Positions 5,335 through 23,804 of a stretch of DNA of 26,179 nucleotides are shown here, piece by piece (within the stretch, counting starts at the first letter, position 1; each line of letters begins with the position of its first letter). This DNA comes from Deltaproteobacteria bacterium (GTDB taxonomy: Bacteria > Desulfobacterota > GWC2-55-46 > DRQE01), in the NCBI GenBank assembly GCA_016219165.1, contig JACRCB010000013.1, forward strand, positions 1 through 26,179. The letters run 5' to 3'. A program made the position numbers and the translations under genes. A model generated the notes under the pieces. That model saw only the letters and a list, made by a program, of their open reading frames with translations, was not told the DNA's origin and did not search any database.

Positions 5335-5400
5335 TGCCCGCCCGACCCATCCTTCGGCTGGGTACCCCGCGCCCTTGAAAGGGCGGGATTGCGGCGGGCA
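5335..5400. repeat. Multi-hairpin element just downstream of pnp
   Basis: Outer stem TGCCCGCC/GGCGGGCA enclosing ACCCATCC-TTC-GGCTGGGT and GCCCT-TGAA-AGGGC hairpins. Confidence 0.6.
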
Positions 5401-8738: not shown

Positions 8739-9740
8739 TTAAGAGGGGCCTCCGGCGCGGGCCTTTTTAGCGCCGCCTATGGGCCCGAGAAGGGCCTCTG
8801 AGACGGACGTCCTTACCTCTTCGAACCCGCCTTTGATATTAAACCCCGCGGCATGGGAGTGACCGCCCCCGCCGAACCTTTCAGCCACTGACGAGACATC
8901 AACTTCCCCCTTGCTCCTTAAACTCACCTTGTATTCGCCCGCAGCGCATTCCCTGAAAAGCACCCCCACTTCCACTCCCTCTATGGCCCTTGCGTAATTT
9001 ACAAACCCGTCCGTAAGGTCCTTATCGCCCCCCACACTCTTTAGCATGTCGAGCGTTACCCTCACGACCGCCACCTTGCCCCCGTTAGCGAGTTCGAGAG
9101 TGGAGAGCACCGCACCGAGGAGTTTAAACTTCTCTGCCGGATAGTTTTCGTATACCTTCATGGCTGTATCCCATGGGTCCGCGCCGCACCTTACAAGCTC
9201 CCCCGCCTTCCTGAAGGCCTCCGGGGTCGAGGAACTGTAGCGGAAGGAACCCGTGTCCGTATGTATGGCCACGTAGAGATTTGTGGCCACGTCCTTGGTT
9301 ATCTTTATGCCTGCGCTCACCAGAAGGTCAAAGACTATCTCCCCTGCGGCGCTGGCCTCTGGTACGACTATATTTATGTCCCCGAAGTTGTCGTTGGTTA
9401 CATGATGGTCCATGTTTACTATCTTTCCGCGGCCTTTGAAGGAGGCAAACCCTTTGCCGAGCCTCTCTAACTGCCCGCAATCGACGGCAAAGGTGGCATC
9501 CACCTCCCCCGCGCCGGAAAGCGTGCGGCAGAGGAGTTCGCTGCCAGGCAGAAATCTATAGATGTCCGGCAGTTTGTCTTCGAGATACGGTATGACCTCT
9601 TTCCCTATCCCTTTAAGCGCCAGGGAAAGCCCAAGGAGAGAGCCCACGGCGTCGCCTTCGGGGCTTACATGGGATACGACGATAAACCTTTTCCCCTTCC
9701 TTATCTCTTCTACCGCGGCTCTAAATATGACCTTAACCAT
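8739..9740 (-). CDS. nrnA: DHH/DHHA1 phosphoesterase (NrnA, oligoribonuclease/pAp phosphatase)
   Basis: HVSPEGDAVGS, MDHH, TDTGSFRY, SLRS, GGGHSHAAG; usual position between rbfA and truB. Confidence 0.9.
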   Translation of the reverse strand: MVKVIFRAAVEEIRKGKRFIVVSHVSPEGDAVGSLLGLSLALKGIGKEVIPYLEDKLPDIYRFLPGSELLCRTLSGAGEVDATFAVDCGQLERLGKGFASFKGRGKIVNMDHHVTNDNFGDINIVVPEASAAGEIVFDLLVSAGIKITKDVATNLYVAIHTDTGSFRYSSSTPEAFRKAGELVRCGADPWDTAMKVYENYPAEKFKLLGAVLSTLELANGGKVAVVRVTLDMLKSVGGDKDLTDGFVNYARAIEGVEVGVLFRECAAGEYKVSLRSKGEVDVSSVAERFGGGGHSHAAGFNIKGGFEEVRTSVSEALLGPIGGAKKARAGGPS

Positions 9741-9813
9741 AAAAGTTTTTCTGACGGTCCTTGTACTCGAAAGTTTCCGGAGATGGTCAATAGAGAATCT
9801 TTACAGAAAAGTC

Positions 9814-9958
9814 CGCGTCCAGCACCACTTTTGACACGCACGCCTCGCGCCTGCGTCGACGCCTCACGGCGCGGCGACCCTCGGCTTCGCCGAGAGGCGA
9901 GCGCGGGTTGGCTTTAAATGTTATAGAGAAAGTCCTGTCAAAAGTGGTGCTGGGCGCG
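9814..9958. repeat. Family II palindromic element with two 24-bp internal inserts
   Basis: 22-bp arms CGCGTCCAGCACCACTTTTGAC (9814-9835) and GTCAAAAGTGGTGCTGGGCGCG (9937-9958), 1 mismatch. Core is collinear with the reverse complement of 22331-22423. Confidence 0.88.
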
Positions 9959-9987
9959 CCGGAAAGTCCCTCCCGGGAATCGGCGTT

Positions 9988-10344
9988 TTATCCGCCGCCC
10001 TTCTCCTTTATCTCCTTAATGACCCTCTCTATATGCTCCGAGTATTCGAGGGAGTCGTCGAAGGTAAACGTAACCGACGGTATAAACCTAAGGGACACCC
10101 GCTTTGCGAGGGTTCTTCTTATATAGCCGCTTGCGCTCTGAAGCCCCTCTCTCGTTTTTTCAACCTCTTCCTTCGTTCCTATGAGGCTGAAAAAGACCCG
10201 AGCCTCCTTAAGGTCTCCGGTCATCCTGACTTTCGTAATCGTTATGAAACCTATCCTCGGGTCCTTTATGTCGCCGTGGAGTATCATGGACGCTATTTCT
10301 TCCCTGATGAGATCCCCCACCCTGTCCGAACGCTTGTAGGCCAT
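9988..10344 (-). CDS. rbfA: Ribosome-binding factor A
   Basis: RSDRVGDLIREEIA, IKDPRIGFITITKV, LQSASGYIR, PSVTFTFDDS. Start moved to ATG 10344. Confidence 0.96.
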   Translation of the reverse strand: MAYKRSDRVGDLIREEIASMILHGDIKDPRIGFITITKVRMTGDLKEARVFFSLIGTKEEVEKTREGLQSASGYIRRTLAKRVSLRFIPSVTFTFDDSLEYSEHIERVIKEIKEKGGG

Positions 10345-10435
10345 GGCACCCCACCCTCGAGTCCCTTGCATATTCCGATTATTTGCCGAAGAAGCGGAAA
10401 ACGGGCAATACGGCCGTGGACATATCCTCTCCGCC

Positions 10436-10735
10436 TCATTTAAAAGGAGAACAGTTTATCAGTTCGATATCGTGCTCAATCACCTCAACCATATTAAGAC
10501 CCTCTATGAAATTGAGCACCCTGTCCATGACGGAATTGATGGTGGCCCCGTCGCTTCCGATGGCAGAAACCCCTATCTCCGCCTTCTGCCAGAGGTCCTG
10601 ACTGCCGACCTCCGCCACGGAGACGTTGAAGCGGTTTTTGACGTTCTCTATGACCTTTTTAAGGACATGCCTTTTGCCCTTGAGCGAGCAACTATCGTGT
10701 ATTATAACACCTATATGGCATACTCCTACCACCAT
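10436..10735 (-). CDS. DUF503 (YlxP-like) protein
   Basis: MVVG...SLKGKRHVLKKVIENVKNRFNVSVAEVGSQDLWQKAEIG; usual position between infB and rbfA. Start moved to ATG 10735. Confidence 0.9.
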   Translation of the reverse strand: MVVGVCHIGVIIHDSCSLKGKRHVLKKVIENVKNRFNVSVAEVGSQDLWQKAEIGVSAIGSDGATINSVMDRVLNFIEGLNMVEVIEHDIELINCSPFK

Positions 10736-10801
10736 GGCAAAGACTGCTGAACCCTCGGGGCAAAGAAACACGGCGGCCCTTATACTCAAGATGGGACAAC
10801 C

Positions 10802-13090
10802 TTACAATTTGGCGGCCTCTTCCTTCAATTCGTACGCCTCTATTATATCCCCCTTCTTTATATCGTTGTAACCCTCGATACTGATGCCGCATTCGTAGCC
10901 GGCCGCCACCTCTCTCGTGTCCTCCTTGAATCTCTTAAGGGACGCGATCTTTCCGTCGTATATTACTACGTTTTCTCTTATAAGCCTCACCTTCAGGCTC
11001 CTCTGTATCTTCCCGTCGACGACAAAACATCCGGCGATATTGCCGACCTTGGAAATCCTGAAGACCTCCCTAACCTCCGCCCTTCCGCTCGTCTCTTCCC
11101 TTACTATCGGCTCGAGCATGCCCTCCATGGCGTTTCTTATGTCATCGGCCAGGTTGTAGATTATATTGTAGAGCCTTATATCCACCGATTCATTCTGGGC
11201 AAGCATCTGGGCCTTTGCCTCAGGCCTTACGTTAAACCCTATAATAATAGCGTTCGAGGCCGCGGCCAGCATGACATCCCCTTCGTTTATGCCGCCCGCC
11301 CCCGCGTGTATCACCTTTATGGCGACCTTATCTCCCGAGAGTTTCCCCAGGACATCCTTGACGGCCTCGATAGAACCCTGAACATCGGCCTTTACCACGA
11401 TGCTCAATTCTTTCACCTCGCCCTTGCTTATCCTGTCATACAGGTCGGCGAGGCTTACCTTGGCGGTCTTCAAAAGTTCCTTCTCGTGGCTCTTCCTCTC
11501 CCTCATGGCGGCGATCTGCTTTGCCGTGGCCTCATCCTTTACAACGGCAAACGTGTCTCCCGCCTGCGGCACCCCGGAAAGCCCCAGAACCTCCACGGGC
11601 ATCGAGGGGCCCGCCTCTTCAATCCTTTTACCCCTGTCATTTGTAAGCGCCCTCAGTCTTCCGGAATAAATGCCGGCGACACAGGCATCCCCCACCCTTA
11701 AGGTGCCGTTCTGGATAAGGACGGTGGATACGGGGCCCCTGCCCTTGTCGAGTTTTGCCTCGATTATAACCCCCCTTGCATGGAGGGCGGGGGATGCATT
11801 AAGTTCCAGCATCTCGGCCTCGAGAAGCACCATCTCGAGAAGCTCTTTTATCTTTATCCCCTTCTTTGCCGATACCTCGACAAATATCGTTTCTCCGCCC
11901 AATGGTTCCGAAACGAGTCCGTACTCCATGAGCGCCTGCTTTACCCTGTCCGGGTTGGCCTGCGGGAGGTCTATCTTGTTTATGGCGACCATGATAGGCA
12001 CACCCGCGGCCTTCGCATGGTTTATGGCTTCTACTGTCTGGGGCATAACGCCGTCATCCGCGGCGACAACCAGGACCACTATATCCGTTACCTTCGCGCC
12101 CCGGGCCCTCATCGCCGTAAACGCCTCGTGCCCCGGGGTGTCGAGGAAGGTTATATCGCCCCTGTCAAGATGCACATGGTACGCGCCTATATGCTGGGTT
12201 ATGCCGCCGGCCTCATCGCTTGCGACGTTTGTCCTCCGTATCGCGTCGAGGAGCGAGGTTTTCCCGTGGTCGACATGCCCCATGACCGTAACCACCGGAG
12301 CCCTCGGCTTAAGTTCTCCCGCCTGTGCATCGGGTGCGGCTTCGATAAGCGATTCTTCCTCCACCGCGACATTTTCAACCCCGTATCCGTAATCCTGCGC
12401 CACGAGAGACGCCGCCTCGACGTCTATGAGTTGGTTGACCGTGGCCATGATGCCGAGCCCCATGAGTTTCTTTATTATCTCGCTCGCCTTCACCCCTATC
12501 CTCTGTGAAAAGTCGCTTACGCTTATGGCGTCTTCGACCTTTACCACCCTCTTTTCCGCCTTCGGAACGGTGATCTCGGTCTTTTTAAGCGGCCTCAGGT
12601 GCTGGGGAGACTGTTTGGGATGGGGCTTCTCCTTCACTTCATAGCGCTTGCCCTTTCTGTAGAGCTGTTTTACAGGGAAGCGCTTTTCTTTCCTGACTTC
12701 CTCCTTGAATATCTTAACCTCTCTTTTCGGAACCTTTTCCTTGAGCCTCTCTTTTGCCGGCTCTGCCGCTTTTGCAACCCCTTTTTCCGGAACCGTGGGG
12801 ATTCCGGCCTCTTTCGCCGGGGCCTTTGAGGGCTTTTTGCCGCCTGCCATGGCCCTCTTTTTTTTACCTTCCACCTCTTCCCCTGCTTCTCTCAAAGGTG
12901 TCTTCTTTCCCGGGGCTTCGGCTTGAGCCTCTTTGGTTTCTTCGATTCTGGATGCTTCAGGCAAAACGCTGCCTTTGGCCTTCTCCTCTTTCTCGGGAAG
13001 AGGCCCGGCCGCACGCCTCCTTATGACAGCGGGCTTAATACGCTTTTCCTCAACCTCTGCGGTTGTCTTTTTTTCCTCTTTTTCAGCCAT
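10802..13090 (-). CDS. infB: Translation initiation factor IF-2
   Basis: [62 protein letters not shown]. Confidence 0.98.
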
Positions 13091-13192
13091 TTATATAAAG
13101 ACCTGACGCCCTCTCTTTTTCACCTGTCAGGGTGAAAATCTTTTCGTAAAAATCTTTTTTCCGGAAGTCTTTTAACGGCGCGGCGGGTGCGC

Positions 13193-14512
13193 TTACGCAG
13201 GACCGCCGGGCTTTGCAAATTCCCTCGCGGCCTTGATTATGGCCGCGGCCTTCTTCTCTCCTATCCCCTCTATCTCCCGAAGGGCTTCGGGGGTCGAATT
13301 GAGAATATCCCCCACGCTCTTATAACCCGCCTTGGAGAGCGCCTTGTGTGTTTTCTCCCCGATGCCCTTAAGTCTCATGATATCCTCATTCAAAAGGGCC
13401 TCCTCCGCCTCTCTTAAAGAAGCGGCCGCGACCTCTTTCCTCAGCGACTCCTCAGGCGAAAGTTCCTCTTTATGTGTCTCCTTCGCCTCGCTCTCGGTGT
13501 GGATGTCTATCTTCCACCCCGTAAGTTTCGCGGCGAGCCTTACGTTCTGCCCCTTCCTGCCGATGGCGAGAGAGAGTTGCTCGTCCGGCACTATGACCTC
13601 CATGCTTTTTTCGTCCTCGTCCACGACAACCTTGCTTATCTGCGCAGGCGAGAGGGCGTTTTTTGCCAGTATCGCCGGGTCTTCGGACCAGCGGATGATG
13701 TCTATCTTCTCCCCCTTGAGTTCCTGCACCACCGCCTGAACCCTCGAGCCCTTAAGCCCCACACACGCTCCGACCGGGTCCACGTCGGGGTTGTTAGAAT
13801 CGACCGCTATCTTCGCCCTCTCGCCGGGCTCCCTGGCGGCGGCCTTTATCTCGACTATCCCCTCGTATACCTCCGGCACCTCCATCTGAAATAGTTTCAT
13901 GAGAAATCCGGGGTGGGTCCTGCTCATGGCAACCTGCGGCCCCTTGCTGTCGCTCCTTACGTCCAGGACTATCCCCCTTATCCTCTCACCCTGGCGGTAG
14001 ATTTCCCTCTTTACCTGCTCTTTTTTGGAAAGTACCGCCTCGGCCCTGCCGAGGTCCACCACCATGTCTCCCCTCTCAAACCTCTGGACGATGCCGGTTA
14101 TTATCTCGCCTTTCTTCTCCCCGTACTCCTTGGAGATTATGTCGCGCTCCGCCTCTCTGACCTTCTGGATGATAATCTGCTTTGCCGTCTGCGCGTCTAT
14201 ACGCCCCAACTCGCGCGAATCGAGTTTAAGCCCGAGGCTGTCGCCGACCCTTGCCTCGGGGTCGTGAGTATGGGCGCCTTCAAGAGAGATTTCCCTGTCG
14301 GGGTCCACTACATCCTCCACAACGGATTTGAACACAAAAAGTTCTATCTCGCCGGCCTCTTCGTTATAGCGCGCCTCTATCGCCTTGTTGGGGCCGAACC
14401 GTTTTTCGGCGGCCTTTACAAGCGCGGACTCCAGTGCCTCTACGAGTATCTTCTTGTCAATACCCTTGTCTTTTTCCACCTGCTCTATTATCTGCGCCAG
14501 GTTCGCAAACAT
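13193..14512 (-). CDS. nusA: Transcription termination factor NusA with C-terminal helix-hairpin-helix extension
   Basis: FGRID-like AQTAKQIIIQKVREAER, S1 domain, REPGERAKIAV, VDPVGACVG, LAIGRKGQNVRLAAKLTGWKIDI, then two GIGEK HhH motifs. Confidence 0.97.
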   Translation of the reverse strand: MFANLAQIIEQVEKDKGIDKKILVEALESALVKAAEKRFGPNKAIEARYNEEAGEIELFVFKSVVEDVVDPDREISLEGAHTHDPEARVGDSLGLKLDSRELGRIDAQTAKQIIIQKVREAERDIISKEYGEKKGEIITGIVQRFERGDMVVDLGRAEAVLSKKEQVKREIYRQGERIRGIVLDVRSDSKGPQVAMSRTHPGFLMKLFQMEVPEVYEGIVEIKAAAREPGERAKIAVDSNNPDVDPVGACVGLKGSRVQAVVQELKGEKIDIIRWSEDPAILAKNALSPAQISKVVVDEDEKSMEVIVPDEQLSLAIGRKGQNVRLAAKLTGWKIDIHTESEAKETHKEELSPEESLRKEVAAASLREAEEALLNEDIMRLKGIGEKTHKALSKAGYKSVGDILNSTPEALREIEGIGEKKAAAIIKAAREFAKPGGPA

Positions 14513-14573
14513 CTAACTTCCTCCTTACAAAAGACCCTCTTGCCGGGGATATTAAATACGGGGCAGGTATATT

Positions 14574-14647
14574 CGCCCCAGCACCACTTCGGGTGCCGGC
14601 GGTGTCAGTAAACAACCAGCGTTTGATATCCGAAGTGGTGATGGGCG
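14574..14647. repeat. Family II variant palindrome between rimP and nusA
   Basis: CCCAGCACCACTTCGG (14577-14592)/CCGAAGTGGTGATGGG (14630-14645), 15 of 16 complementary; shares CAGCACCACTT with 9820-9830. Confidence 0.75.
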
Positions 14648-14654
14648 CTCCATT

Positions 14655-15119
14655 TCAGATAACTATCTCAAGCCTCGCCCTGTCTATATTCGATAATTCT
14701 ATCTGACAGAGTTTGCCGTCCGCGTCCTTTACGACGATATTGCCTTCCTCTATCCCCTCAAGAGTGGCGTTCTTAAAATTCCTTCTGCCCTCAACGGGTT
14801 TTTTAGTCCTTATGCGCACCTTATGGCCGACCGCCCCGATAAAATCCTTTTCCCTGATAAGGGGCCTGTCGAGGCCCGGGGATGAGACCTCAAGAGAATA
14901 ACTCTCCGGCATCATGTCTTCCACATCGAGGATGGTTGAGAGTTCACGGCTGACCTTTGCGCAATCCTCAACCGTCACCCCTCCCGGTTTGTCTATCAAT
15001 ATGCGGAGCACCCTCCTGCCCTCCTCAAAAACATATGCAATATCGACGAGACGAACGCCGTACCCCTCCGCCACCGGCAACGCAAGTCCCCTTACCTTCT
15101 CCTCCAGACCCTGTATCAT
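14655..15119 (-). CDS. rimP: Ribosome maturation factor RimP
   Basis: LRILIDKPGGVTVEDCAKVSRELS, YSLEVSSPGLDRPL, GRRNF; first gene of the nusA-infB operon. Start at ATG 15119 (15134 is possible). Confidence 0.96.
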   Translation of the reverse strand: MIQGLEEKVRGLALPVAEGYGVRLVDIAYVFEEGRRVLRILIDKPGGVTVEDCAKVSRELSTILDVEDMMPESYSLEVSSPGLDRPLIREKDFIGAVGHKVRIRTKKPVEGRRNFKNATLEGIEEGNIVVKDADGKLCQIELSNIDRARLEIVI

Positions 15120-15145
15120 CAAGGATATTCCCATGCGCTTTAATG

Positions 15146-15172
15146 AAAAAAGTGGGCCTTCGCCCACTTCTT
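15146..15172 (-). ncRNA. rimP leader attenuator hairpin
   Basis: Minus strand AAGTGGGC-GAAG-GCCCACTT followed by TTTT, between the promoter and rimP; matches the conserved GGGC...GCCC rimP leader. Confidence 0.72.
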
Positions 15173-15180
15173 AAATTATT

Positions 15181-15209
15181 AATCTATCACATGAAAAAAA
15201 TCTTTGCAA
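15181..15209 (-). promoter_or_regulatory. Sigma70-type promoter of the rimP-nusA-infB operon
   Basis: TTGCAA (15209-15204), 17-bp spacer, TAGATT (15186-15181) with TG extended -10, just upstream of the leader hairpin. Confidence 0.65.
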
Positions 15210-15244
15210 GAGTAAAGTTGACCGTCCCCGCATACGGCCGTTCT

Positions 15245-15889
15245 TTACTTCAATGCCGCGAGATACTCCACTATGGCCGCCCTTTCTTTTTTGGAGAAGG
15301 GGTAGGCAGGCATGAACGTGCCCGGTTTTACGGACTGCGGGTCTTTAAGCCATTTATCGAGCCATTTTCTGCTTCTTTTCTGCCCCTCACGCGTCAAATC
15401 CGGGTATCTGGCCCTTCCCGATAGCGGGTCTTCTATCCTGTGGCAGGACTTGCAGTCATACTCCTCTATAAGCCTTTTGCCGGCCTCCTTTTTTGAAACC
15501 TTTCCGAGGAAGTCTTTCCTTATATCCTTCTTGAATGTCTTAAACAAGGCTATGAGGTCTAAAACTTCCTCCTGTGTCTTCCACGGAACCTTCGGCATAT
15601 CGGTATCTTTCAGAATGGAAGGCGGGTCATTGAGCCATCTTACGAGCCATTCGTCAGTCCGTCTCATGGTAACATGGGTAAGGTCAGGGCCGAGAGCGCC
15701 CCCGGACAACTCTATGCTGTGGCATGCCGGACAGCCCCTGCCCCTGAATATCTCCTTACCTTTTTCCGGGTCTCCCGATACCCCGGGCGTCTGCGCAAAG
15801 ACGCTTTGGCAGAGTAGTACAAGGAGGACTAAAAAGATTATCCTTGATGACATAGCCGCCATCCGATGTCCGTTCAACTTATATCTCAC
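15245..15889 (-). CDS. Periplasmic diheme class I cytochrome c
   Basis: Signal peptide (SSRIIFLVLLVLLCQSVFA), CPACH and CKSCH, each followed by PDLT...WL..P...MP, i.e. two tandem His/Met-type domains. Exact start uncertain (GTG 15889 or a downstream ATG). Confidence 0.85.
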   Translation of the reverse strand: MRYKLNGHRMAAMSSRIIFLVLLVLLCQSVFAQTPGVSGDPEKGKEIFRGRGCPACHSIELSGGALGPDLTHVTMRRTDEWLVRWLNDPPSILKDTDMPKVPWKTQEEVLDLIALFKTFKKDIRKDFLGKVSKKEAGKRLIEEYDCKSCHRIEDPLSGRARYPDLTREGQKRSRKWLDKWLKDPQSVKPGTFMPAYPFSKKERAAIVEYLAALK

Positions 15890-15954
15890 TTACACCTCCC
15901 AAGATAACAAGATAAGGCGGCTTGAGAATTATCCGCCGTGTTCCCCCTTGGACA

Positions 15955-16554
15955 TTACATGGCCCCGGGCACCGGTTTAGGAAGTTTCTTCTTTGCCCCC
16001 ATATCTATCCTTCTTCCCTTGCTCAAAGAATAGACGTACGCCTCAAGGTCAACGGCCTCCTGGCTGTTTAAGTCAAGCGGGGCTCCCTTTAGAAAGGTCA
16101 TTATGCAAATGTTATTCTGCCCTCCGACGGTTGAGACGGCCTTCATGGGCCCTATAGGCTTGGGAAAACCAGCGGCCGCGCCGATAAGGGTCGGGATGGC
16201 CGCCTTCATGGCCATTCCCTTCCACTCCATCTCGGCTGCCCCGCCTATGGTGCCCCCTTTAGGATGGCAGGTAGAGCAACTCGTGCCGGTTGCGTTATTG
16301 CCCAGGGTCGTGTCGTTAAAGAGCCCCTCCCCCCTCTTTATCGACGCATCGAGGGTATCGGGCTGCATCTCCATCATCGCCTTCTTCATCGCCTCCACCT
16401 TTTCCGGGGGCATCAATCCATGCCCATCCCGGGGGCCATGGGGCTCCGTCATTTTTTCCATACCCGTCTTTTCCGCGCCCATTTCCGCGGCAACCACGTA
16501 GCCGCCGAGCGCAAGTGAGATAAAAAACGCCATTGCCAATGTTTTTGCCTTCAT
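15955..16554 (-). CDS. Periplasmic monoheme cytochrome c, SoxA/TsdA-like domain
   Basis: Signal peptide, RGEGLF, CSTCH, LIGAAAGFPK, QNNICI (extra Cys), PLDLNSQEAVDLEAYVYSLSKG. GGAGG RBS 8 nt before ATG 16554. Confidence 0.75.
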   Translation of the reverse strand: MKAKTLAMAFFISLALGGYVVAAEMGAEKTGMEKMTEPHGPRDGHGLMPPEKVEAMKKAMMEMQPDTLDASIKRGEGLFNDTTLGNNATGTSCSTCHPKGGTIGGAAEMEWKGMAMKAAIPTLIGAAAGFPKPIGPMKAVSTVGGQNNICIMTFLKGAPLDLNSQEAVDLEAYVYSLSKGRRIDMGAKKKLPKPVPGAM

Positions 16555-16575
16555 ATCCCGTCCCTCCATGAAAGA

Positions 16576-16605
16576 AAGTTAATCACTCCATTGCGGGAAT
16601 GTCAA
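16576..16605 (-). promoter_or_regulatory. Putative sigma70 promoter of the cytochrome pair
   Basis: Perfect TTGACA (16605-16600), 18-bp spacer, TAACTT (16581-16576). Confidence 0.5.
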
Positions 16606-16636
16606 GGCAGGCGGTAAAGGAAAGGACCCGAGACGC

Positions 16637-16665
16637 TTGTTTAACGGAAAAACCTCTGCTATACT
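16637..16665 (+). promoter_or_regulatory. Putative sigma70 promoter of the BON gene
   Basis: TTGTTT (16637-16642), 17-bp spacer, TG-extended TATACT (16660-16665); GGAGGTG RBS at 16684-16690. Confidence 0.6.
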
Positions 16666-16694
16666 CGCCTTACTCGATTGATTGGAGGTGTTCC

Positions 16695-17363
16695 GTGAAA
16701 GAAGATGCAAGGCTAAAAAAACTCGGCGCCCTGATGACCGAGAACCTCCGCATAGACTTAAAGAAGAACCTCATACGCCTCAATATGGAAGGCGACTCCA
16801 TAGTCATTGAGGGGACGGTAGAGAGGGTCGCGGACAAGAAAAGGGCTCTTCTTTTAGCGATGGGGATAGAGGGGACATCAGGGGTTATTGACCGGTTGAA
16901 GGTTAAGCCGGCAAAGACCATGAGCGATAAGGAGATTTACAGCCACCTTGTAAATGCGATTTCAGAAGAACCAACCCTCGCCTCTTCGGACATAAAGATA
17001 GAGGTCAGAGACGCGGTTGTTGACATAGAAGGGGGCGTCGGGTCGCTTAGCCACAAACGCCTCATGGGTGTCTTTGCATGGTGGGTCCCGGGGAGCATGG
17101 AAGTCATAAACTCGCTTGAGGTCGAACCCCCTGAAGAGGACTCGGACGATGAAATAAGCGACGCATTACGGGTTGTGATGGAAAAGGACCTCCTCGTTGA
17201 TGAGTCTACTATCAGGGTTTCCACAAAGAACTGGGTTGTAACATTATCCGGGACTGTAAGAAAAGAAAGCGAAAAAGAAGCCGCTGAAAACGACGCCTGG
17301 TATGTATGGGGAGTGAACGGGGTGGTAAACAACATCGTGGTTGCCGGCAAAAGGGCCGGGTAG
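16695..17363 (+). CDS. Triple BON-domain protein (OsmY-like)
   Basis: Three repeats of I.V.V..G.V.L.G.V....K..A...A..V.GV..V.N.L.V. GTG start at 16695 has a strong RBS; the ORF-track start at 16599 lies inside the promoter region. Confidence 0.85.
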   Translation: MKEDARLKKLGALMTENLRIDLKKNLIRLNMEGDSIVIEGTVERVADKKRALLLAMGIEGTSGVIDRLKVKPAKTMSDKEIYSHLVNAISEEPTLASSDIKIEVRDAVVDIEGGVGSLSHKRLMGVFAWWVPGSMEVINSLEVEPPEEDSDDEISDALRVVMEKDLLVDESTIRVSTKNWVVTLSGTVRKESEKEAAENDAWYVWGVNGVVNNIVVAGKRAG

Positions 17364-17372
17364 ATATATTCC

Positions 17373-17518
17373 AAGCCCCGGGCATGCCCTTTAGAGATTT
17401 CGGTGTGTCCCCGCGTCGCCGCGAGGCGTGCTCACACCGAAATATCATAGCCTCCCTTTCGGGAGGACTCCGGGGTTGTTTCGGCGAGGGGACTCACCGA
17501 AACATCAACTCCCGGCTT
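17373..17518. repeat. Multi-hairpin mosaic element between the convergent BON and cyclophilin genes (may also act as a bidirectional terminator)
   Basis: ATTTCGGTGTG (17397-17407)/CACACCGAAAT (17433-17443); CCTCCC-TTTC-GGGAGG (17451-17466); TGTTTCGG (17477-17484)/CCGAAACA (17497-17504). Confidence 0.75.
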
Positions 17519-17544
17519 GCCCCTTTCTTTAAAGTTAACCGACC

Positions 17545-18135
17545 CTACTCTACCACCCTCACCTTTATCTCGATTCTTTCCTCCGGGACGTCCCTTGAGT
17601 CCCTGGGCTGTTCAACTATCTTATCGACGACGTCCATCCCCCTTACCACCTCGCCGAACGCGGTATACTGCCCGTTTAAGGAAGATACGTCCTTCACCAT
17701 TATGAAAAACTGGGAGCCGCCGCTATCGGGTTCGCTTTTCCTCGCCATGGACAACACCCCGCGCTTATGGGGCATCTGATTGAACTCCGCGGGTATGGTG
17801 TAGCCTGGGCCTCCCATCCCGTATGTCGCCCTGTCAGGCGTTTTTGTGTTCGGGTCCCCCCCCTGTATCACAAAGCCCGGTATCACCCTGTGGAATACCG
17901 TTCCGTCATAGAAGCCCTCTTTTGCGAGTTTTACGAAATTCCTTACATGCCCCGGAGCGGCGTCGGGATAGAACTTGAGTTCTATCTCGCCGAACTTCGT
18001 TTCTATAACGGCCCTCACCTTCTTAATATCTTTCACATCCATGGTATCCTTCTGTCCTCCTTTGGCTGAAACCGGGAGTAATGCAAGCATAAAAACCGCT
18101 GCCAAAACAGCCCCGGGTACCCTCGCAATCTTCAT
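17545..18135 (-). CDS. Cyclophilin-type peptidyl-prolyl cis-trans isomerase with signal peptide
   Basis: FYDGTVFHRVIPGFVIQGGDP, GVLSMAR, SQFFI, YTAFGEVVRGMDVVDKI; hydrophobic N-terminus. Confidence 0.95.
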   Translation of the reverse strand: MKIARVPGAVLAAVFMLALLPVSAKGGQKDTMDVKDIKKVRAVIETKFGEIELKFYPDAAPGHVRNFVKLAKEGFYDGTVFHRVIPGFVIQGGDPNTKTPDRATYGMGGPGYTIPAEFNQMPHKRGVLSMARKSEPDSGGSQFFIMVKDVSSLNGQYTAFGEVVRGMDVVDKIVEQPRDSRDVPEERIEIKVRVVE

Positions 18136-18193
18136 ATGACTCGCTCCCTCCTTTTAAATGTACCTTTAGTTTTAATACCGTTTGCATGGAAAA

Positions 18194-19684
18194 TCAAGAG
18201 GGTTTTATCCCCTTCCCTTTTAGATGCCTCCTTACGTAGGCCACGGCGTCTTTCTTGGTGCGGACGGCCCCCTCCTCGACCCCCTCTGAAATCTCTCTCA
18301 TTATCTCTCCCACGGCCGGGCCCTCGTCCACGCCGAAGACGTGTTTTATCTCATCCCCGCTTAGAAGGGGCTTCGGCTTTCTCTTCGAATACACGTCGAA
18401 ATAAAAACCGAGCATATCCAGAACCACCCTGAGGAGCCTTTCGTCCTCCCCTCCCCCCGTAGCCCTCGCATCGCTCAGGCCTATTAAAAGAAGGTCGCAC
18501 CCCAACTCTCCGCCGGCCGAATTGAAAAAATGCGACCTTGCCCTCAAGGAAGGTTTAGGGAGGCCGGCGAGGGTAAAGATGCGGTGGTGGTTCCTTACCA
18601 GTGTCGCCACGGCCTTTACGGCCTTGCGGCTCATCTTAAGCCTTTTCAATACCCTCTTTACCGCGGCCTCGCCTTCCACCTCGTGCCCTATGAATCCAAG
18701 GACACCCTCTTCGAACTTCATTGCGGCCGGTTTTCCGATGTCGTGGAGGAACGCCCCGATTTTGAATACCGCCTCCCTCCCGATACCTCCGGTCATTCCC
18801 TCAAAATGTCCTTTAAGCCCGGCGTGGAGGGGCCTGCCGGACAGAATGACCTCAGCCTCTCGGAGCGTATTCAGAGAATGGCCGAGGAGGTCGTAACCGG
18901 CAAGAGACCCCCACCCCTTCAACTCAGGAAAGATAACACCTAAAATACCCGCCTGAAATAATTTCTCTATGCTCCCCCACGACCCCGGATGCGAAAATAT
19001 CAGCGCCACCTCGTCCCTTATCCTCTCGGCCGCGCTCTCCGATAGGAGCGCCCCTTTTTCCTTAATGAGCGCTCCGGTCGATTCCTCTATCCTGAAGGCA
19101 TATTGCTGGGAGAGCCTTATGGCCCTCAAAAGCCTCAAAGGGTCTTCATCAAAGACCCTTGGGGATACCGCCCTCAATACCATCTCTTCTATATCCCTCA
19201 ACCCCCGGTGGGGGTCTATCAGTCCGGGTATTTCTTTCCCAAAAAGGTCCGGGATACTCAAGGCAATCGCATTGACGGTAAAGTCCCTTTTCCCGAGGTC
19301 TCTTAAGACATCGCCGTCCTTAAGTAAAGATATATCGATTGTGGCGATGGGCCCCTTCTTTATTACAATCCTCCATGTGGGGGACTCTTCGTCCAGAAGG
19401 AAAAAACTCCCTCCGAGGGCCTTACTGAGCCCCTGCGAAAACCCCCGTACATCCCCAAGGAGAGAAAAGTCATAATCCCGCCCCGGTTCCTTTTTAAGAA
19501 AAATATTTCTTAAAGCGCCCCCGACCATGTAGACCGGGGCCTTAAGCCCATTGCTCAGGCTGTATACTTCCCTGACAATCCGGTCTCCCCTGAGAATGGA
19601 AAAGACATTTGCCAATACGCCCGAAAAACAAAAGGCCGGCTCCGGCCGGCCTTTTACGGTATTGCCTTTCCTGCCACTCGTCAT
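18194..19684 (-). CDS. Class II tRNA nucleotidyltransferase with HD domain (probably CC-adding)
   Basis: VGGALR...DYD, KRDFTVNA, EDPLRLLRAIR, ERIRDE, GHSL...LHDIGKP. Start overlaps the TPR gene stop (ATGA); the true start could be downstream. Confidence 0.88.
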   Translation of the reverse strand: MTSGRKGNTVKGRPEPAFCFSGVLANVFSILRGDRIVREVYSLSNGLKAPVYMVGGALRNIFLKKEPGRDYDFSLLGDVRGFSQGLSKALGGSFFLLDEESPTWRIVIKKGPIATIDISLLKDGDVLRDLGKRDFTVNAIALSIPDLFGKEIPGLIDPHRGLRDIEEMVLRAVSPRVFDEDPLRLLRAIRLSQQYAFRIEESTGALIKEKGALLSESAAERIRDEVALIFSHPGSWGSIEKLFQAGILGVIFPELKGWGSLAGYDLLGHSLNTLREAEVILSGRPLHAGLKGHFEGMTGGIGREAVFKIGAFLHDIGKPAAMKFEEGVLGFIGHEVEGEAAVKRVLKRLKMSRKAVKAVATLVRNHHRIFTLAGLPKPSLRARSHFFNSAGGELGCDLLLIGLSDARATGGGEDERLLRVVLDMLGFYFDVYSKRKPKPLLSGDEIKHVFGVDEGPAVGEIMREISEGVEEGAVRTKKDAVAYVRRHLKGKGIKPS

Positions 19685-21498
19685 AAAAATTCCACTTCTA
19701 TCATGTCATCGTCTTTAGGGACATCGTCCTCTTCTTCAGAAAATTCCTTTACCTTGTCAGATACCTCTCTATATTCGGGGTCCGTTCCATAAACCGTCCT
19801 GAACATCTCCACGGCTTCCACCGAGTTGCCCGCGGCCTCATATGCAAGCCCGAGCTCATAGAGGAGCCCTTTCCTTTCCTCATCGCTCCGCCCCTGCGCC
19901 TTCAGTGCCTTTAAATAATAACTTATCGCATCGCCTGGCGCGCCCGTCGACATCGCGCAGAGCCCCAACCTTGTGTAGGCGTCGAACTCGAAGAGGGGGT
20001 TCTGAACTGAAATCTTGAATTCCCTCAAGGCGTCAGCGAAGAGTTCCATCTCCATATACGCCTTTCCCATATTATGGTGGGTTTCGGCATCCTCGTGTCC
20101 CAGCCGTTCCCCCATACCGGCCTTTATCTCCTCGACCGTCTCCCTTGCCTCCCCCTCGGGCCATGCGCTTACTATCTTATCTACGGCCTCTTCGAGGCCG
20201 AGTTCCTTGGAGAGGTCTACAAAATCTTCCTTGCCCTCTTTTTCCGCAGGTTCTCCTTCAGATGCGGCGAGGGAGGGCATTGCGGGAAGCCCTTCTTCCT
20301 CCTTTTCCTCCAATCCGGCTTCAGGCGCCTCTGCCCCTTCCTCTTCCCCCGCCCTTTCTATAATCTCCTCTATCGATGCCTCCTCCACAACCTCTTCCAC
20401 AACCTCTATCGGCTCCAATACCTCGGCCTCTTCCTCCTCTCCGATAGACACCTCGAAAAACTCCTCTTCCCCATACGTAGAGGGAACACTCTCTCCCCTC
20501 TCTCCCCCCGCCCTTTCCATGACCTCTTGTTTTTTTACTTCTTCCCCGGGAAGAACGGCGGACTTCTCCTTCCCCCCGGCGTTAGGCAAAGGCGTCTCTT
20601 TTGGAACGCTTCCTTGCGGCGAGATTACCCCTTCCCCGGCTTGGGGGGACGCCTTTTCTTTAACCGCTCCACATTGCGGCGGCGCCGCCTCTTTTGCCTC
20701 TTCCCCCGCCTCGATATTACGCAGTATCCCCCTTGCCTTCTCGTTGGCCGGGAAGACTTCGAGTACGGCTTTGGACAAGGCCTTCATCTTCTCTTTATCC
20801 AGTCTTTCCGTATATACGTCTAAAAGGGACTGTGCATAATCCGAAAACCGGGATGTCTCGCCCTTCCTTCTGTAAAGTTCACAGAGCCCCTCCATGACCA
20901 TGGGCTCTTTCCCGTGGGATTTGTAAAGTTCCAGGAGTATCTTCTCGGCCTTATCGAGTTTGGCCTGCAGAAAAAACCTGTCCACAACCCAGCAATACTC
21001 GGAGAGCGCATCCTCTTTGTAGCCGGAATTTTTGTACGTCTCGGCGAGTTTAAGTTTAAGACCCACGTTCTCAGGGTCGATAGAGACCATTTTTTTAAGG
21101 AGTTCCAGCACATCGGAGGTCTTTCCCTTCTTCTCAAATGCGCTTACAATGTGGCTGTACTCGCTTACGGCGTCGACAATGAGCCTCTGCCTGGTATAGA
21201 GGTCTGCGAGTTTATGGTGGACATCGAGGCTTGTCTCATCGAGTTTCATCACCTGCTTGTATACGGCTATCGCCTTCAGATAGAAGCCCTTATGCGCGTA
21301 TATCCTCGCAACCTCGCCGTACTCTTTTATGGCGCCTTCTTTCTGGTTTGCCTTTACCAGCAGGTCCCCCAATCTCAGGCGTATTGAGATATCGGCGGGG
21401 TCCATCTCCGATATCTCCCTGTAATCGGCAATGGCCTTGTCGAGATACCCTTTCTGGATGTATTTTTGCGCCCTGTCTATTAACTTTTCTTTATTCAT
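19681..21498 (-). CDS. Multi-TPR protein with acidic linker, SgmX-like
   Basis: N-terminal TPRs (AQKYIQKGYLDKAIADY, GFYLKAIAVYKQ), Glu-rich middle, three C-terminal TPRs (DAETHHNMGKAYMEMELFADALREF...LLYELGLAYE...DPEYREV). Confidence 0.75.
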   Translation of the reverse strand: MNKEKLIDRAQKYIQKGYLDKAIADYREISEMDPADISIRLRLGDLLVKANQKEGAIKEYGEVARIYAHKGFYLKAIAVYKQVMKLDETSLDVHHKLADLYTRQRLIVDAVSEYSHIVSAFEKKGKTSDVLELLKKMVSIDPENVGLKLKLAETYKNSGYKEDALSEYCWVVDRFFLQAKLDKAEKILLELYKSHGKEPMVMEGLCELYRRKGETSRFSDYAQSLLDVYTERLDKEKMKALSKAVLEVFPANEKARGILRNIEAGEEAKEAAPPQCGAVKEKASPQAGEGVISPQGSVPKETPLPNAGGKEKSAVLPGEEVKKQEVMERAGGERGESVPSTYGEEEFFEVSIGEEEEAEVLEPIEVVEEVVEEASIEEIIERAGEEEGAEAPEAGLEEKEEEGLPAMPSLAASEGEPAEKEGKEDFVDLSKELGLEEAVDKIVSAWPEGEARETVEEIKAGMGERLGHEDAETHHNMGKAYMEMELFADALREFKISVQNPLFEFDAYTRLGLCAMSTGAPGDAISYYLKALKAQGRSDEERKGLLYELGLAYEAAGNSVEAVEMFRTVYGTDPEYREVSDKVKEFSEEEDDVPKDDDMIEVEFL

Positions 21499-21501
21499 AA
21501 T

Positions 21502-22311
21502 TCATATGCCGAAAGAAGCGAGCCTCCTCTCTATATCCCCTGCGGCCCCGTCCATGTTCCAGCCGCTCTTTGAATATCTCTCTTCTCTAACGAGGTCTTT
21601 AAGCCGCCTCTCCTCGGAGCTCAGGGCGGATTCCTTGAACCTGACCTTAAGCCCCTCTTCGAGCCTCTCTGCAAGTATGCCTCTGAACCCTTCCTTTCCC
21701 GCGTCCGAGAAGGCCCCCACCCACGACATCTTTTCAATCGCCGCGGCGCCGAAGATACGCCGGACTAAATCTTTGTCGACGCCGAAGAGGATAGAGCCGT
21801 GCTGAAGGAACGTCTTCTTAAAGCGCCTCTGGCAGCTGCCGACTATCTTCCTGCCATCCGCGAGTATTTCATACCTCCGAGGGGCATGGAAACATGACTC
21901 TCCGGCTTCCGGACGGGTTCCCCGCTTATCTGAAATCTCCGGGTCCGGAAAAGAGGCCTCTATGCCGATTCCCCGGAGCGCATTCACGATGCAACCCGAT
22001 ATCGTCATATACGCGCCGAGTATCCCGGCTGAAAAGAGCGGATGCGTAGAGTCGCACACCAGAGAATATGTAAGTTCCGCATGATGGAGCACGGCCCTTC
22101 CTCCGGTTATCCGCCTTACAAACGGAACCCCGCACCCCGCAAGGGACATGGGATTCTGCCTGTAGCCTATGGACAGTGTTGGGGTTATCCATTCATAGAG
22201 CCTGACCGCCGGGGTAAAGCCGCCTCTCTCCCCCGCCCGGAGAATGGCCTCGTCTTTAGCCATGTTCTCGACCCCGCAATCCGGCCCGTCCAGAATAAGC
22301 CTCCATTCCAC
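21502..22311 (-). CDS. Lipoate-protein ligase A / LipM-like octanoyltransferase
   Basis: ENMAKDEAIL, RLYEW...LSIG, RRITGGRAVLH...ELTYS, KIVGSCQRR, LQHGSI. GTG 22311 has AGGAGG 9 nt upstream; the ORF-track start at 22410 lies inside a repeat. Confidence 0.88.
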   Translation of the reverse strand: MEWRLILDGPDCGVENMAKDEAILRAGERGGFTPAVRLYEWITPTLSIGYRQNPMSLAGCGVPFVRRITGGRAVLHHAELTYSLVCDSTHPLFSAGILGAYMTISGCIVNALRGIGIEASFPDPEISDKRGTRPEAGESCFHAPRRYEILADGRKIVGSCQRRFKKTFLQHGSILFGVDKDLVRRIFGAAAIEKMSWVGAFSDAGKEGFRGILAERLEEGLKVRFKESALSSEERRLKDLVREERYSKSGWNMDGAAGDIERRLASFGI

Positions 22312-22330
22312 TCTCGATAACCTCCTGTAA

Positions 22331-22446
22331 GCGCCCGGCACCACTTTTGACAGGGCTTCCTCCATAACATTCAAAGCCAACCCGCGTCGCCGCGAGGCGT
22401 GCGTGTCCAAAGTGGTGCTGGACGTGTCGAAAGTGGTGCCGGGCGC
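22331..22446. repeat. Family II palindromic element with a tandemly duplicated arm
   Basis: Left arm GCGCCCGGCACCACTTTTGACA (22331-22352); right arms GTGTCCAAAGTGGTGCTGGAC (22403-22423) and GTGTCGAAAGTGGTGCCGGGC (22424-22444). Confidence 0.88.
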
Positions 22447-22469
22447 GGAAAAAAGGGCGATTATATATT

Positions 22470-23804
22470 TTACGAAAATCTCGAGAGGAAATCTATGTCT
22501 ATGGTGCCGGCGATGAAGTCGTGGTCTTTCATTACCTCAATAAGAAGCGGTATGTTTGTCTGTATGCCCGATATCGCGAACTCCTCGAGTGCCCCGGACA
22601 TCTTCTTTATGGCCTCTCTTCGCGTGGATGCGTGGACTATGAGTTTTGCGAGCAAGGGGTCGTACTGGCTCGGCACGGTGTAGTTGCAGTAGATGGCGGT
22701 ATCCACCCTCACGCCCGGCCCTCCGGGAAGATACAGGGCTGTAATCTTTCCGGGGGATGGGACAAAGGTTTTAGGGTCTTCGGCGTTTATCCTGCATTCA
22801 ATGCTGTGCCCCTCCATCCTGATGTCTTCCTGCTTGAAGGGGAGTCTTCTGCCGGCGGAGATATTTATCTGTTCCTTGAGGATATCGATGCCTGTTGTCA
22901 TCTCCGTTGCCGGGTGTTCCACCTGGACCCTGGCGTTCATCTCCATGAAATAGAAATTTTTGTCCTTATCGACGAGGAATTCCACGGTCCCGATGTTCGT
23001 ATAGCCTATGGCCTTGCAGAGCCTGACCGCGGCCTCTCCCATCTTATCCCTCAGTTTCTCGTCAACGACCGGCGATGGTGATTCCTCGATTATCTTCTGG
23101 TGTCTTCTCTGGATAGAGCATTCCCTCTCGCCGAGGTGCACGATATTACCGTGCTCGTCCGCCATAATCTGGATTTCTATGTGCCTCGGCCTTTCGCAGT
23201 ATCTCTCTATAAAAACCTCTCCATCGCCGAATGCGCTCCTGGCCTCTCTGCCCGCCATGTGGAATGCGCTCCCGAGGGACGCCTGTGTGTGCACGAGCCT
23301 CATCCCCCTCCCCCCCCCGCCGCAAGAGGCCTTTATTATCAGGGGGAACCCCACCTTCTTTGAGACCTCGAGCGCTTCCTTCTCATCCGTCAGCCCGCAC
23401 CCGCTCCACGGCAAGACCGGCACATTTGCCTTCTCGGCCTCTTTCTTCGCCTGAATTTTATTTCCCATGAGCCTGATAATCTGGGAGGAGGGGCCTATGA
23501 ACTTCAGCCCGCATTTCTCGCACACCTCGGCAAAAGCCGCGCTCTCGGCGAGGAATCCGTATCCCGGGTGCACGGCCTCGGCATCCACAACCTCAACGGC
23601 GCTGATTATCGATGATATATTGAGATAACTCTCGGAACTCTTCGCCGGGCCTATGCATATGGCGCCGTCGGCAGACTTTGCATGGAGGGATTCCCTGTCG
23701 GCCTCCGAATAGACCGCAACGGTTTTGATGTCGAGTTCCTTGCAAGCCCTCATAATCCTCAGGGCTATCTCGCCGCGGTTGGCAATAAGTACCTTGCTGA
23801 ACAT
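22470..23804 (-). CDS. accC: Acetyl-CoA carboxylase, biotin carboxylase subunit
   Basis: KVLIANRGEIALR, HPGYGFLAE, GGGGRGM, ERECSIQRRHQK, EMNARVQVEHP, RINAEDP, YDPLLAKLI. Confidence 0.96.
   Translation of the reverse strand: MFSKVLIANRGEIALRIMRACKELDIKTVAVYSEADRESLHAKSADGAICIGPAKSSESYLNISSIISAVEVVDAEAVHPGYGFLAESAAFAEVCEKCGLKFIGPSSQIIRLMGNKIQAKKEAEKANVPVLPWSGCGLTDEKEALEVSKKVGFPLIIKASCGGGGRGMRLVHTQASLGSAFHMAGREARSAFGDGEVFIERYCERPRHIEIQIMADEHGNIVHLGERECSIQRRHQKIIEESPSPVVDEKLRDKMGEAAVRLCKAIGYTNIGTVEFLVDKDKNFYFMEMNARVQVEHPATEMTTGIDILKEQINISAGRRLPFKQEDIRMEGHSIECRINAEDPKTFVPSPGKITALYLPGGPGVRVDTAIYCNYTVPSQYDPLLAKLIVHASTRREAIKKMSGALEEFAISGIQTNIPLLIEVMKDHDFIAGTIDIDFLSRFS

Follow-up and report, generated by a model that had tools for sequence, protein, structure and literature searches.

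Nested insertion of short hairpin modules within a palindromic repeat of a groundwater deltaproteobacterial genome

A palindromic repeat in the genome of a groundwater deltaproteobacterium has probably been invaded in succession by three small modules, L1, ins1 and ins2, which on comparison of their copies appear to be discrete, non-autonomous mobile units directed to hairpin loops. The window, which is the whole 26,179-nucleotide stretch of DNA that was analysed, is contig C42 of a 1.56-Mb metagenome-assembled genome (MAG; here G000) in 209 contigs, 91% complete and of 53% GC. The element of interest occupies plus-strand positions 9814-9958 within an infB-rbfA-...-pnp gene string. It is bordered by two minus-strand genes, rbfA (9988-10371), with its stop towards the element, and an nrnA-like gene (8739-9740), with its start towards it. 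In the nearest relative, G004 (77% DNA identity), the gap between rbfA and the nrnA-like gene is only about 45 bp and lacks the element.

This 145-bp element consists of E68, a palindromic repeat of about 68 bp resembling REPINs and MITEs, together with the three modules. The nhmmer and alignment census placed the left arm of E68, with the terminal inverted repeat CCAGCACCACTTTTGACAC, at 9817-9837 and its centre and right arm at 9907-9955. Between them is L1, whose intact form is the 21-mer GCACGCCTCGCGGCGACGCGG and which is here cut into three pieces by two 24-mers: a 5' part GCACGCCT at 9838-9845, a middle part made up of CGCG and the loop GCGA at 9870-9877, and a 3' part CGCGG at 9902-9906, the last two assigned from the sequence and the alignment. 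The 24-mers stand at the two edges of the GCGA loop of L1, ins1 (9846-9869) at the 5' edge and ins2 (9878-9901), a hairpin CTCGGC-TTC-GCCGAG, at the 3' edge; all of these parts are on the plus strand. The boundaries of ins1 can slide rightward by up to 4 bases (CGCG) and those of ins2 by 1 base (C).

A sister copy of E68 is found in the window at 22333-22423 on the minus strand, in an intergenic region with accC on one side and a lipoate-ligase-like gene on the other. The preliminary description had aligned the flagged copy with the reverse complement of 22331-22423 and found the two collinear apart from two blocks of exactly 24 bp, the second being a hairpin with GCGAAGC on its minus strand. 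Our alignment bears this out: after removal of 9846-9869 and 9878-9901 the remaining 97 bp gave 87 matches and 6 mismatches without an internal gap, and both the hairpin and its minus-strand motif were confirmed. The sister copy had also been regarded as the empty core, and in this the description was mistaken. Compared with 48 insert-free E68 copies it carries a 21-bp insert at 22382-22402 (minus strand), an intact L1 at base position 20 of E68, and it is therefore itself a filled form. Both of the nested inserts first proposed are real, but the count rises to three modules since the sister already holds L1. The sister copy has in addition a 21-bp tandem duplication of one E68 terminus (22424-22444, minus strand), and duplications of the same kind are present at C19:3344, C27:10461 and C46:7217.

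The nhmmer census identified 69 E68 loci in the genome, 48 of them without any insert of 6 bp or more, and the E68 termini GCACCACTTT and AAAGTGGTGC occur about 100 times genome-wide. L1 is present in 13 E68 loci, at base position 20, 38 or, once, 17. With up to two mismatches allowed it has 23 copies in the genome, hosted by E68, by the loop of a second hairpin, REP-B (in two subtypes), by ins2 and by four other settings. REP-B (TTTCGGTG...CACCGAAA) is unrelated to E68; one copy with L1 in its loop is in the window at 17398-17442 on the minus strand, and in the genome seven copies are filled with L1 as against 17 that are empty. We found 11 copies of ins2, six of them exact, within L1 (in either orientation), ins1, another ins2, REP-B and elsewhere. 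The 12 copies of ins1 (up to four mismatches) are mostly free-standing, and twice they form 24-bp tandem doublets. Chance can be excluded as the source of the six exact ins2 and twelve ins1 copies, because the expectation for a particular 24-mer over the 3.1 Mb of both strands is about 1e-8 occurrences. Independent insertions are fewer than copies, since certain identical composites may have been propagated as intact blocks.

The copies form a graded paralogous series with identical junctions, from empty E68 through E68 with L1 (the sister copy, one copy on C112 and two on C200) and E68 with L1 and ins1 to the full composite, of which the flagged copy is the only example. The state with L1 and ins1 is represented by C154:13539, which is the flagged composite minus exactly the 24 bp of ins2; both copies have the rare CACGG variant of ins1, and C154:13539 holds a second L1 at base position 38. 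Pairwise divergence is 8.9% among the E68 parts of the L1-bearing copies, and the L1 21-mers are essentially identical; as far as sequence divergence can tell, the L1 modules are younger or more constrained than their E68 hosts.

We give almost no credence to the converse reading, in which the long form is ancestral and 22331-22423 was derived from it by deletion. Direct-repeat deletions do occur (C112:5619 and C198:650, each with 18 bp lost), but the insert-free loci are the large majority, a single copy holds all three modules, each module is found independently in unrelated hosts, and an insertion within a gene (see below) is missing from seven orthologues. The census, the other contexts, the helicase orthologues and the C154 intermediate together refute it. 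Uniqueness of each 24-mer in the genome, or an ancestral majority of the long form, had been named beforehand as outcomes that would overturn the idea of inserts. Neither was encountered: each 24-mer is multi-copy and stands in unrelated contexts, the short form predominates, and filled and empty states at identical junctions exist in the C154 paralogue and the helicase orthologues. This recurrence, the filled and empty junctions and the short-form majority support the original proposal of tiny cassettes that insert into larger palindromes.

Several other features of the E68 family were observed. At C112:5619-5691 and C198:650-722 a single L1 joins E68 position 20 to position 38, the intervening 18 bp being gone; these forms look like products of L1-L1 recombination in an element that, like C154:13539, was filled twice. 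The junction region of E68 holds other inserts at C185:7733-7842 and C116:8921-9122, one of them a 45-bp mini-palindrome with two shortened E68-like arms and the other a 132-bp composite containing a module of the ACCCA type described below. The terminal 21 nt of E68, GTCCAGCACCACTTTGGACAC, is itself a small hairpin unit, and for this reason E68 can be regarded as REPIN-like, with two inverted 21-nt units and a spacer. A 13-nt terminus, CCAGCACCACTTT, is common to palindromic elements whose interiors are otherwise dissimilar, both in several genomes across the order (such as G043, with about 100 hits, G053, G013, G004 and G042) and in other families of G000 (on C9, C113 and C116). It behaves like the conserved end signal of a superfamily; G043 gave no RAYT-like hit. 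The genes between closely spaced E68 copies are ordinary housekeeping genes (such as rpsB, tsf and pyrH), which ruled out nuclease genes at these places.

Short repeats are liable to misassembly, and the nested interior of the flagged copy could be an assembler chimera in a MAG of about 6x coverage. We compared the window from 9000 to 23000 with Logan contigs (contigs only, no reads) from four groundwater runs, and those of the likely source run end at 9845 and begin again at 9917, with breaks inside the repeat and very high local word depth, as a chimera would predict. Because of these breaks the Logan contigs provide no independent check of the assembly of the flagged copy or of presence and absence alleles. 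When JGI metagenome contigs were searched for alleles through the element's unique left-hand flank, none matched. An artefact is nevertheless very improbable, since the junction of L1 with ins1 is also present on C154 and C185, that of ins1 with ins2 is found in other MAGs and metagenome contigs (L105, L212, L231), and ins2 occupies the same position in L1 on C19.

The three modules are related to one another. L1 and ins1 have the 13-mer ACGCCTCGCGGCG in common, and the minus strand of ins2 reads as the same core with one change, giving a 13-nt family core CGCCTC(G/T)CGGCGA. L1 and the minus strand of ins2 fold alike: each has a 5' tail of 4-5 nt and a stem whose CC/GG foot contains a bulged T, closed by a loop of 3-4 nt, GCGA in L1 and GAA in ins2. 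The GAA form corresponds to the GCGAAGC motif of the preliminary description, and hairpins of the d(GCGAAGC) type are unusually stable as DNA. The tail reads GCACG in L1 and, on the minus strand, CTCG in ins2; in ins1, CGTC/GACG is confined to the centre. Folded as single-stranded DNA, the composite is strongly structured (z = -7.9). A compensatory variant of the ins2 stem (CTTGG/CCAAG) exists, and the module hairpin is under constraint. No Rfam family matched the modules at either the gathering threshold or a permissive threshold.

The genome also contains a second, larger superfamily of mini-hairpins of about 27 nt, with the stem ACCCAnnC, a loop TTCG, TGCG or GAAG, and the arm GnnTGGGT. There are more than 100 copies genome-wide, with many compensatory stem variants, and two are in the window at 1742-1760 and 5345-5363. 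These ACCCA modules are situated in the centres of other abundant palindromes (the CTTAAGGAACCTCTGAAAAA... and GAGAGAACCTTTTTATAAAAAGGTTCTCTC families) and are also free-standing after genes.

Whole modules insert into hairpin loops or palindrome centres. When the junctions were tabulated, those with a readable host hairpin or palindrome fell within or at the apical loop or the palindromic centre of that host. The target sites comprise the stem/centre junction and the apical loop of E68, the loop of REP-B, both edges of the L1 loop, the centre of ins1 (GTCGA^C), the loop of ins2 (GGCTT^CGCC) and GC palindromes in coding sequence; the palindromes entered at their centres are CGCG, GTCGAC and GGCGCGCC. 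Nesting is reciprocal, with ins1 and ins2 found within L1, ins2 within ins1 and within ins2, and L1 within ins2. As the modules enter loops and palindrome centres, the composite remains an extended hairpin.

From metagenome contigs of 35-66% GC, more than 120 in number, we collected 122 exact copies of the ins2 24-mer. Fifty-nine of these are in the loop of another ins2-like unit, in stacks up to 3-4 deep in which repeats of the 10-nt left half precede repeats of the 14-nt right half. Such runs are what insertion of whole modules predicts, and correction from arm to arm of a palindrome or slippage does not fit them. The base 3' of ins2 is C in about 90% of the copies, often as CGC, and CGCG always directly follows ins1. 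The four bases 5' of ins2 are variable; outside the self-nested copies, which have GCTT (59/122), no tetranucleotide was found in more than 8 of the 122. Between 1 and 11 bases of homology are found at the junctions, and a target-site duplication of fixed length is therefore lacking.

Such variable homology would also fit microhomology-mediated copying, and modules might be inserted without any transposase if, during replication of DNA prone to hairpins, a nascent strand switched at microhomology of the CGCG type onto a related module elsewhere, copied about 20 nt and returned. On this view palindrome instability would generate the modules as by-products. Besides the range of junction homology, the invariable CGCG after ins1, the 9 shared bases at the helicase site described below and the existence of tandem 24-bp arrays all agree with template switching, and the 13-nt core that the modules share could seed a strand switch. 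We consider this explanation unlikely, though not to be set aside lightly. The donors are unlinked and on other contigs, and self-nesting of whole modules with asymmetric 10- and 14-nt halves is not expected from arm-to-arm correction.

Insertion of whole modules is also evident inside a gene. The DEAD-box helicase gene at C95:726-2423 (minus strand) contains two tandem in-frame ins1 units (48 bp, C95:1000-1047), which are situated in a linker and encode a repeated 8-residue peptide. Exactly those 16 residues are absent from all seven helicase orthologues, which are from other genera of the family. In G000 the insertion site is a palindrome of the GGCGCGCC type, with 9 bases of shared sequence at the junction. 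Copies of ins1 were also seen within long open frames at C47:12693-12740 and C11:482-505, and a copy of L1 at C115:15487-15507, in each case without orthologue comparison.

Hairpins in operons may have roles as RNA, and the repeats could be selected stabilisers or terminators, internal to operons, that have been homogenised by recombination and are not mobile. Using crude open-frame calls, we found 33 of 53 scorable E68 loci to be intergenic within co-directional operons; the loops are of the GNRA or triloop type, and the compensatory change in the ins2 stem is of the sort that selection on RNA would leave. Against this, the orientation of E68 relative to transcription is mixed (22 the same, 11 opposite), ins1 occupies one and the same host hairpin in either orientation (G000 and G004), some module copies are in frame inside genes, and Rfam has no match. 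A function in RNA would in any case leave the arrival of identical 24-mers at new sites unexplained, and we regard this alternative as improbable.

The distribution of the modules is patchy. Among 77 genomes of the order, ins1 is found in only six and L1 in three; the search for ins2 was limited within the order to the family, where four of 17 genomes have it. Nearly unchanged copies of ins1 and ins2 are present in MAGs of the Nitrospirota and Omnitrophota (taxon labels are those of the public records), and for ins1 the complete unit, flanks included, was seen in Omnitrophota MAGs and in those carrying the label Nitrospirae, Nitrospirota or Nitrospiraceae. One Omnitrophota genome of about 45% GC has 43 copies of ins2 and 13 of ins1, including four-unit tandem arrays of ins1. 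The junction of ins2 inside ins1 that is seen on C185 recurs in other MAGs and in metagenome contigs. An all-against-all BLAST of the loci confined the cross-phylum similarity to the modules themselves. No conserved neighbour of ins1 was found across phyla, and the flanks of the Omnitrophota arrays are ordinary genes. Sequences so nearly identical, distributed patchily across phyla, favour horizontal spread and sequence-specific recognition. The pattern also counts against template switching, since 24-mers that remain nearly unchanged across phyla and in contigs of 35-66% GC point to sequence-specific recognition or very recent transfer.

Scans for ins1 with short patterns must be treated with caution. 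Its first 19 bases match a frequent way of encoding the ferredoxin motif C-R-A-C-V-D-A-C-P at high GC, and because of this such scans bring up numerous false matches in Actinomycetota and in other genomes of high GC. Our own 19-mer scan of genome contigs was overwhelmed by chance or coding matches, for the most part to the ferredoxin motif, and in it we counted only the full 24-mer with its flanks. The Gemmatimonadales were not accepted as a fourth phylum, the contig concerned (L132) being syntenic with Nitrospirota contigs. The loci L062, L125 and L132 show synteny of 74-80% over about 1 kb, and the bin label of L132 is doubtful. At the site that these three loci have in common, the copy number of ins1 is one versus two, and one ins1 has a nested ins2-like unit.

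The enzyme that would mobilise the modules has not been identified. The genome has two Y1 genes, of which the one on C168 (178 aa) passes the NCBIfam RAYT model NF047646 with 108.9 bits against a cut-off of 80. In this REPtron (G000:C168:6647-7296; locus L015, 1441-2094) the RAYT gene lies between 53-nt inverted hairpins of the REP-B type, each with L1. Its closest orthologue, in G008 (60% identity), has REP-B-like flanks with compensatory stem changes and without L1, so that REP-B, and not L1, is the conserved partner of the C168 RAYT.

Neither type of Y1 gene co-occurred with the modules across the 77 genomes of the order. A search with Pfam PF01797 covered ten module-bearing genomes; of 11 module-bearing genomes examined, five had no Y1 gene that we could find (the absentees include G013, G015, G078 and G080), and Y1/RAYT genes are present in many module-free genomes. 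On ins2-bearing contigs Y1 genes are rare (2/120) and not flanked by modules, and no Y1 gene found in other genomes is flanked by ins1 or ins2. With no co-occurrence across genomes and no flanking by ins1 or ins2, RAYT/Y1 was rejected as the dedicated enzyme of the modules. Nor did we find in the genome a parent insertion sequence with ends like half-sites of ins1. The absence of an enzyme is a point in favour of template switching. The connection to HUH enzymes that had been proposed is only weakly supported, in that L1-bearing hairpins flank one RAYT, but across genomes the occurrence of Y1 genes does not follow that of the modules. Our best guess is still an enzyme of the HUH/Y1 (RAYT-like) kind; without such co-occurrence it remains a guess by analogy and a doubtful one.

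Our preferred interpretation is that of successive insertion, by which a whole module would be copied into a second DNA hairpin, either in the single-stranded loop at its apex or at its palindromic centre. The targets would include the loops of other modules and, occasionally, short GC palindromes within genes, which may be entered in frame. A sequence-specific enzyme, supplied in trans, may act on single-stranded or cruciform DNA; this is inferred, the enzyme being unidentified. The preliminary description had the cassettes mobilised in trans, and of this claim insertion is established by comparison, but mobilisation in trans is an inference that has not been demonstrated. That the modules are still mobile is likewise only inferred from comparisons among sequences, with neither read-level evidence nor data on population polymorphism. 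More speculatively, L1, ins1, ins2 and their relatives could constitute an unrecognised class of structure-directed mobile DNA that crosses phyla, made up of loop-invading hairpins of 21-24 nt, possibly moved by an unknown sequence-specific enzyme other than RAYT, spreading horizontally in groundwater and sediment, building hairpins in the manner of Russian dolls and adding peptide segments to proteins. We consider this possible, though less likely than not.

The material available for further work consists of three related modules with a shared core, a target rule, a graded series of filled and empty forms, an orthologous empty site in a gene, and 24-mers common to three phyla or more, one genome alone having over 50 copies. 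The search for the enzyme is thereby made tractable, through phyletic profiling of module-rich versus module-free genomes and through oligonucleotide assays. The system bears on the origin of REP-like repeats, on the growth of intergenic hairpins in operons, and on the source of short in-frame insertions in proteins.

Among known repeats, REPs and REPINs with RAYT (TnpA-REP) transposases (Bertels & Rainey 2011, PMC3116915) resemble the modules in several respects, and REP dimers inside longer palindromes and REPs inside genes have been described (Di Nocera et al. 2013, PMC3733652). The modules are dispersed, extragenic and of the 20-40 nt class of imperfect hairpins, each with an unpaired tail of a few bases. 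E68 resembles a REPIN in being a doublet of inverted 21-nt units, and one RAYT is flanked by inverted hairpins containing L1, although the flanks of its G008 orthologue lack L1. Unlike REPs and REPINs, the modules have no GTAG (or CGTC) tag beside the hairpin, they insert into one another, they do not co-occur with Y1 genes, and ins1 and ins2 never flank a Y1 gene. Like MITEs and the Rickettsia palindromic elements (RPE), they are non-autonomous, palindromic and tolerated inside operons, and according to work cited in PMC3733652, RPE also insert in frame in genes. The modules differ from MITEs in being 3-10 times smaller, in having no fixed target-site duplication and in that no parent insertion sequence was found. 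They differ from miniature elements derived from IS200/IS605 in that there is no conserved tetra- or pentanucleotide 5' of ins2.

To our knowledge, cyanobacteria are the only bacteria from which mobile DNA as small as this had been described, and we know of no accepted mechanism for it. The cyanobacterial small dispersed repeats (SDRs) were reportedly described by Elhai et al. in 2008 (Genome Res 18:1484). As cited in later papers, SDR1-8 of heterocystous cyanobacteria (Nostoc and relatives) are 21-27 nt in length, with many near-identical dispersed copies that are embedded in other repeats (PMC3116915, PMC4390886, PMC13756078), and SDR5 is inserted precisely between bases 3 and 4 of the HIP1 palindrome (PMC4390886). 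No enzyme is known for SDRs, and their function was given as unknown as late as 2026 (PMC13756078). We found no mention of our module sequences in the literature searched. The preliminary description had spoken of an undescribed system, which is too strong given so clear a precedent in the SDRs. By analogy of behaviour, and not of sequence, SDRs are the closest precedent for the modules. Judged from these citations, the modules fall within the same 21-27 nt range (L1 being 21 nt and ins1 and ins2 24 nt), are found nearly identical in many unrelated contexts including the inside of other repeats, and insert precisely into short palindromes. The modules differ in being GC-rich and in the hosts that carry them, which are labelled Thermodesulfobacteriota/Deltaproteobacteria, Nitrospirota and Omnitrophota and are not heterocystous cyanobacteria. 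What is new relative to SDRs is thus these host phyla, the rule of targeting hairpin loops, reciprocal nesting and self-nesting 3-4 deep, in-frame insertion in a gene with an orthologous empty site, and the sharing of 24-mers across phyla.
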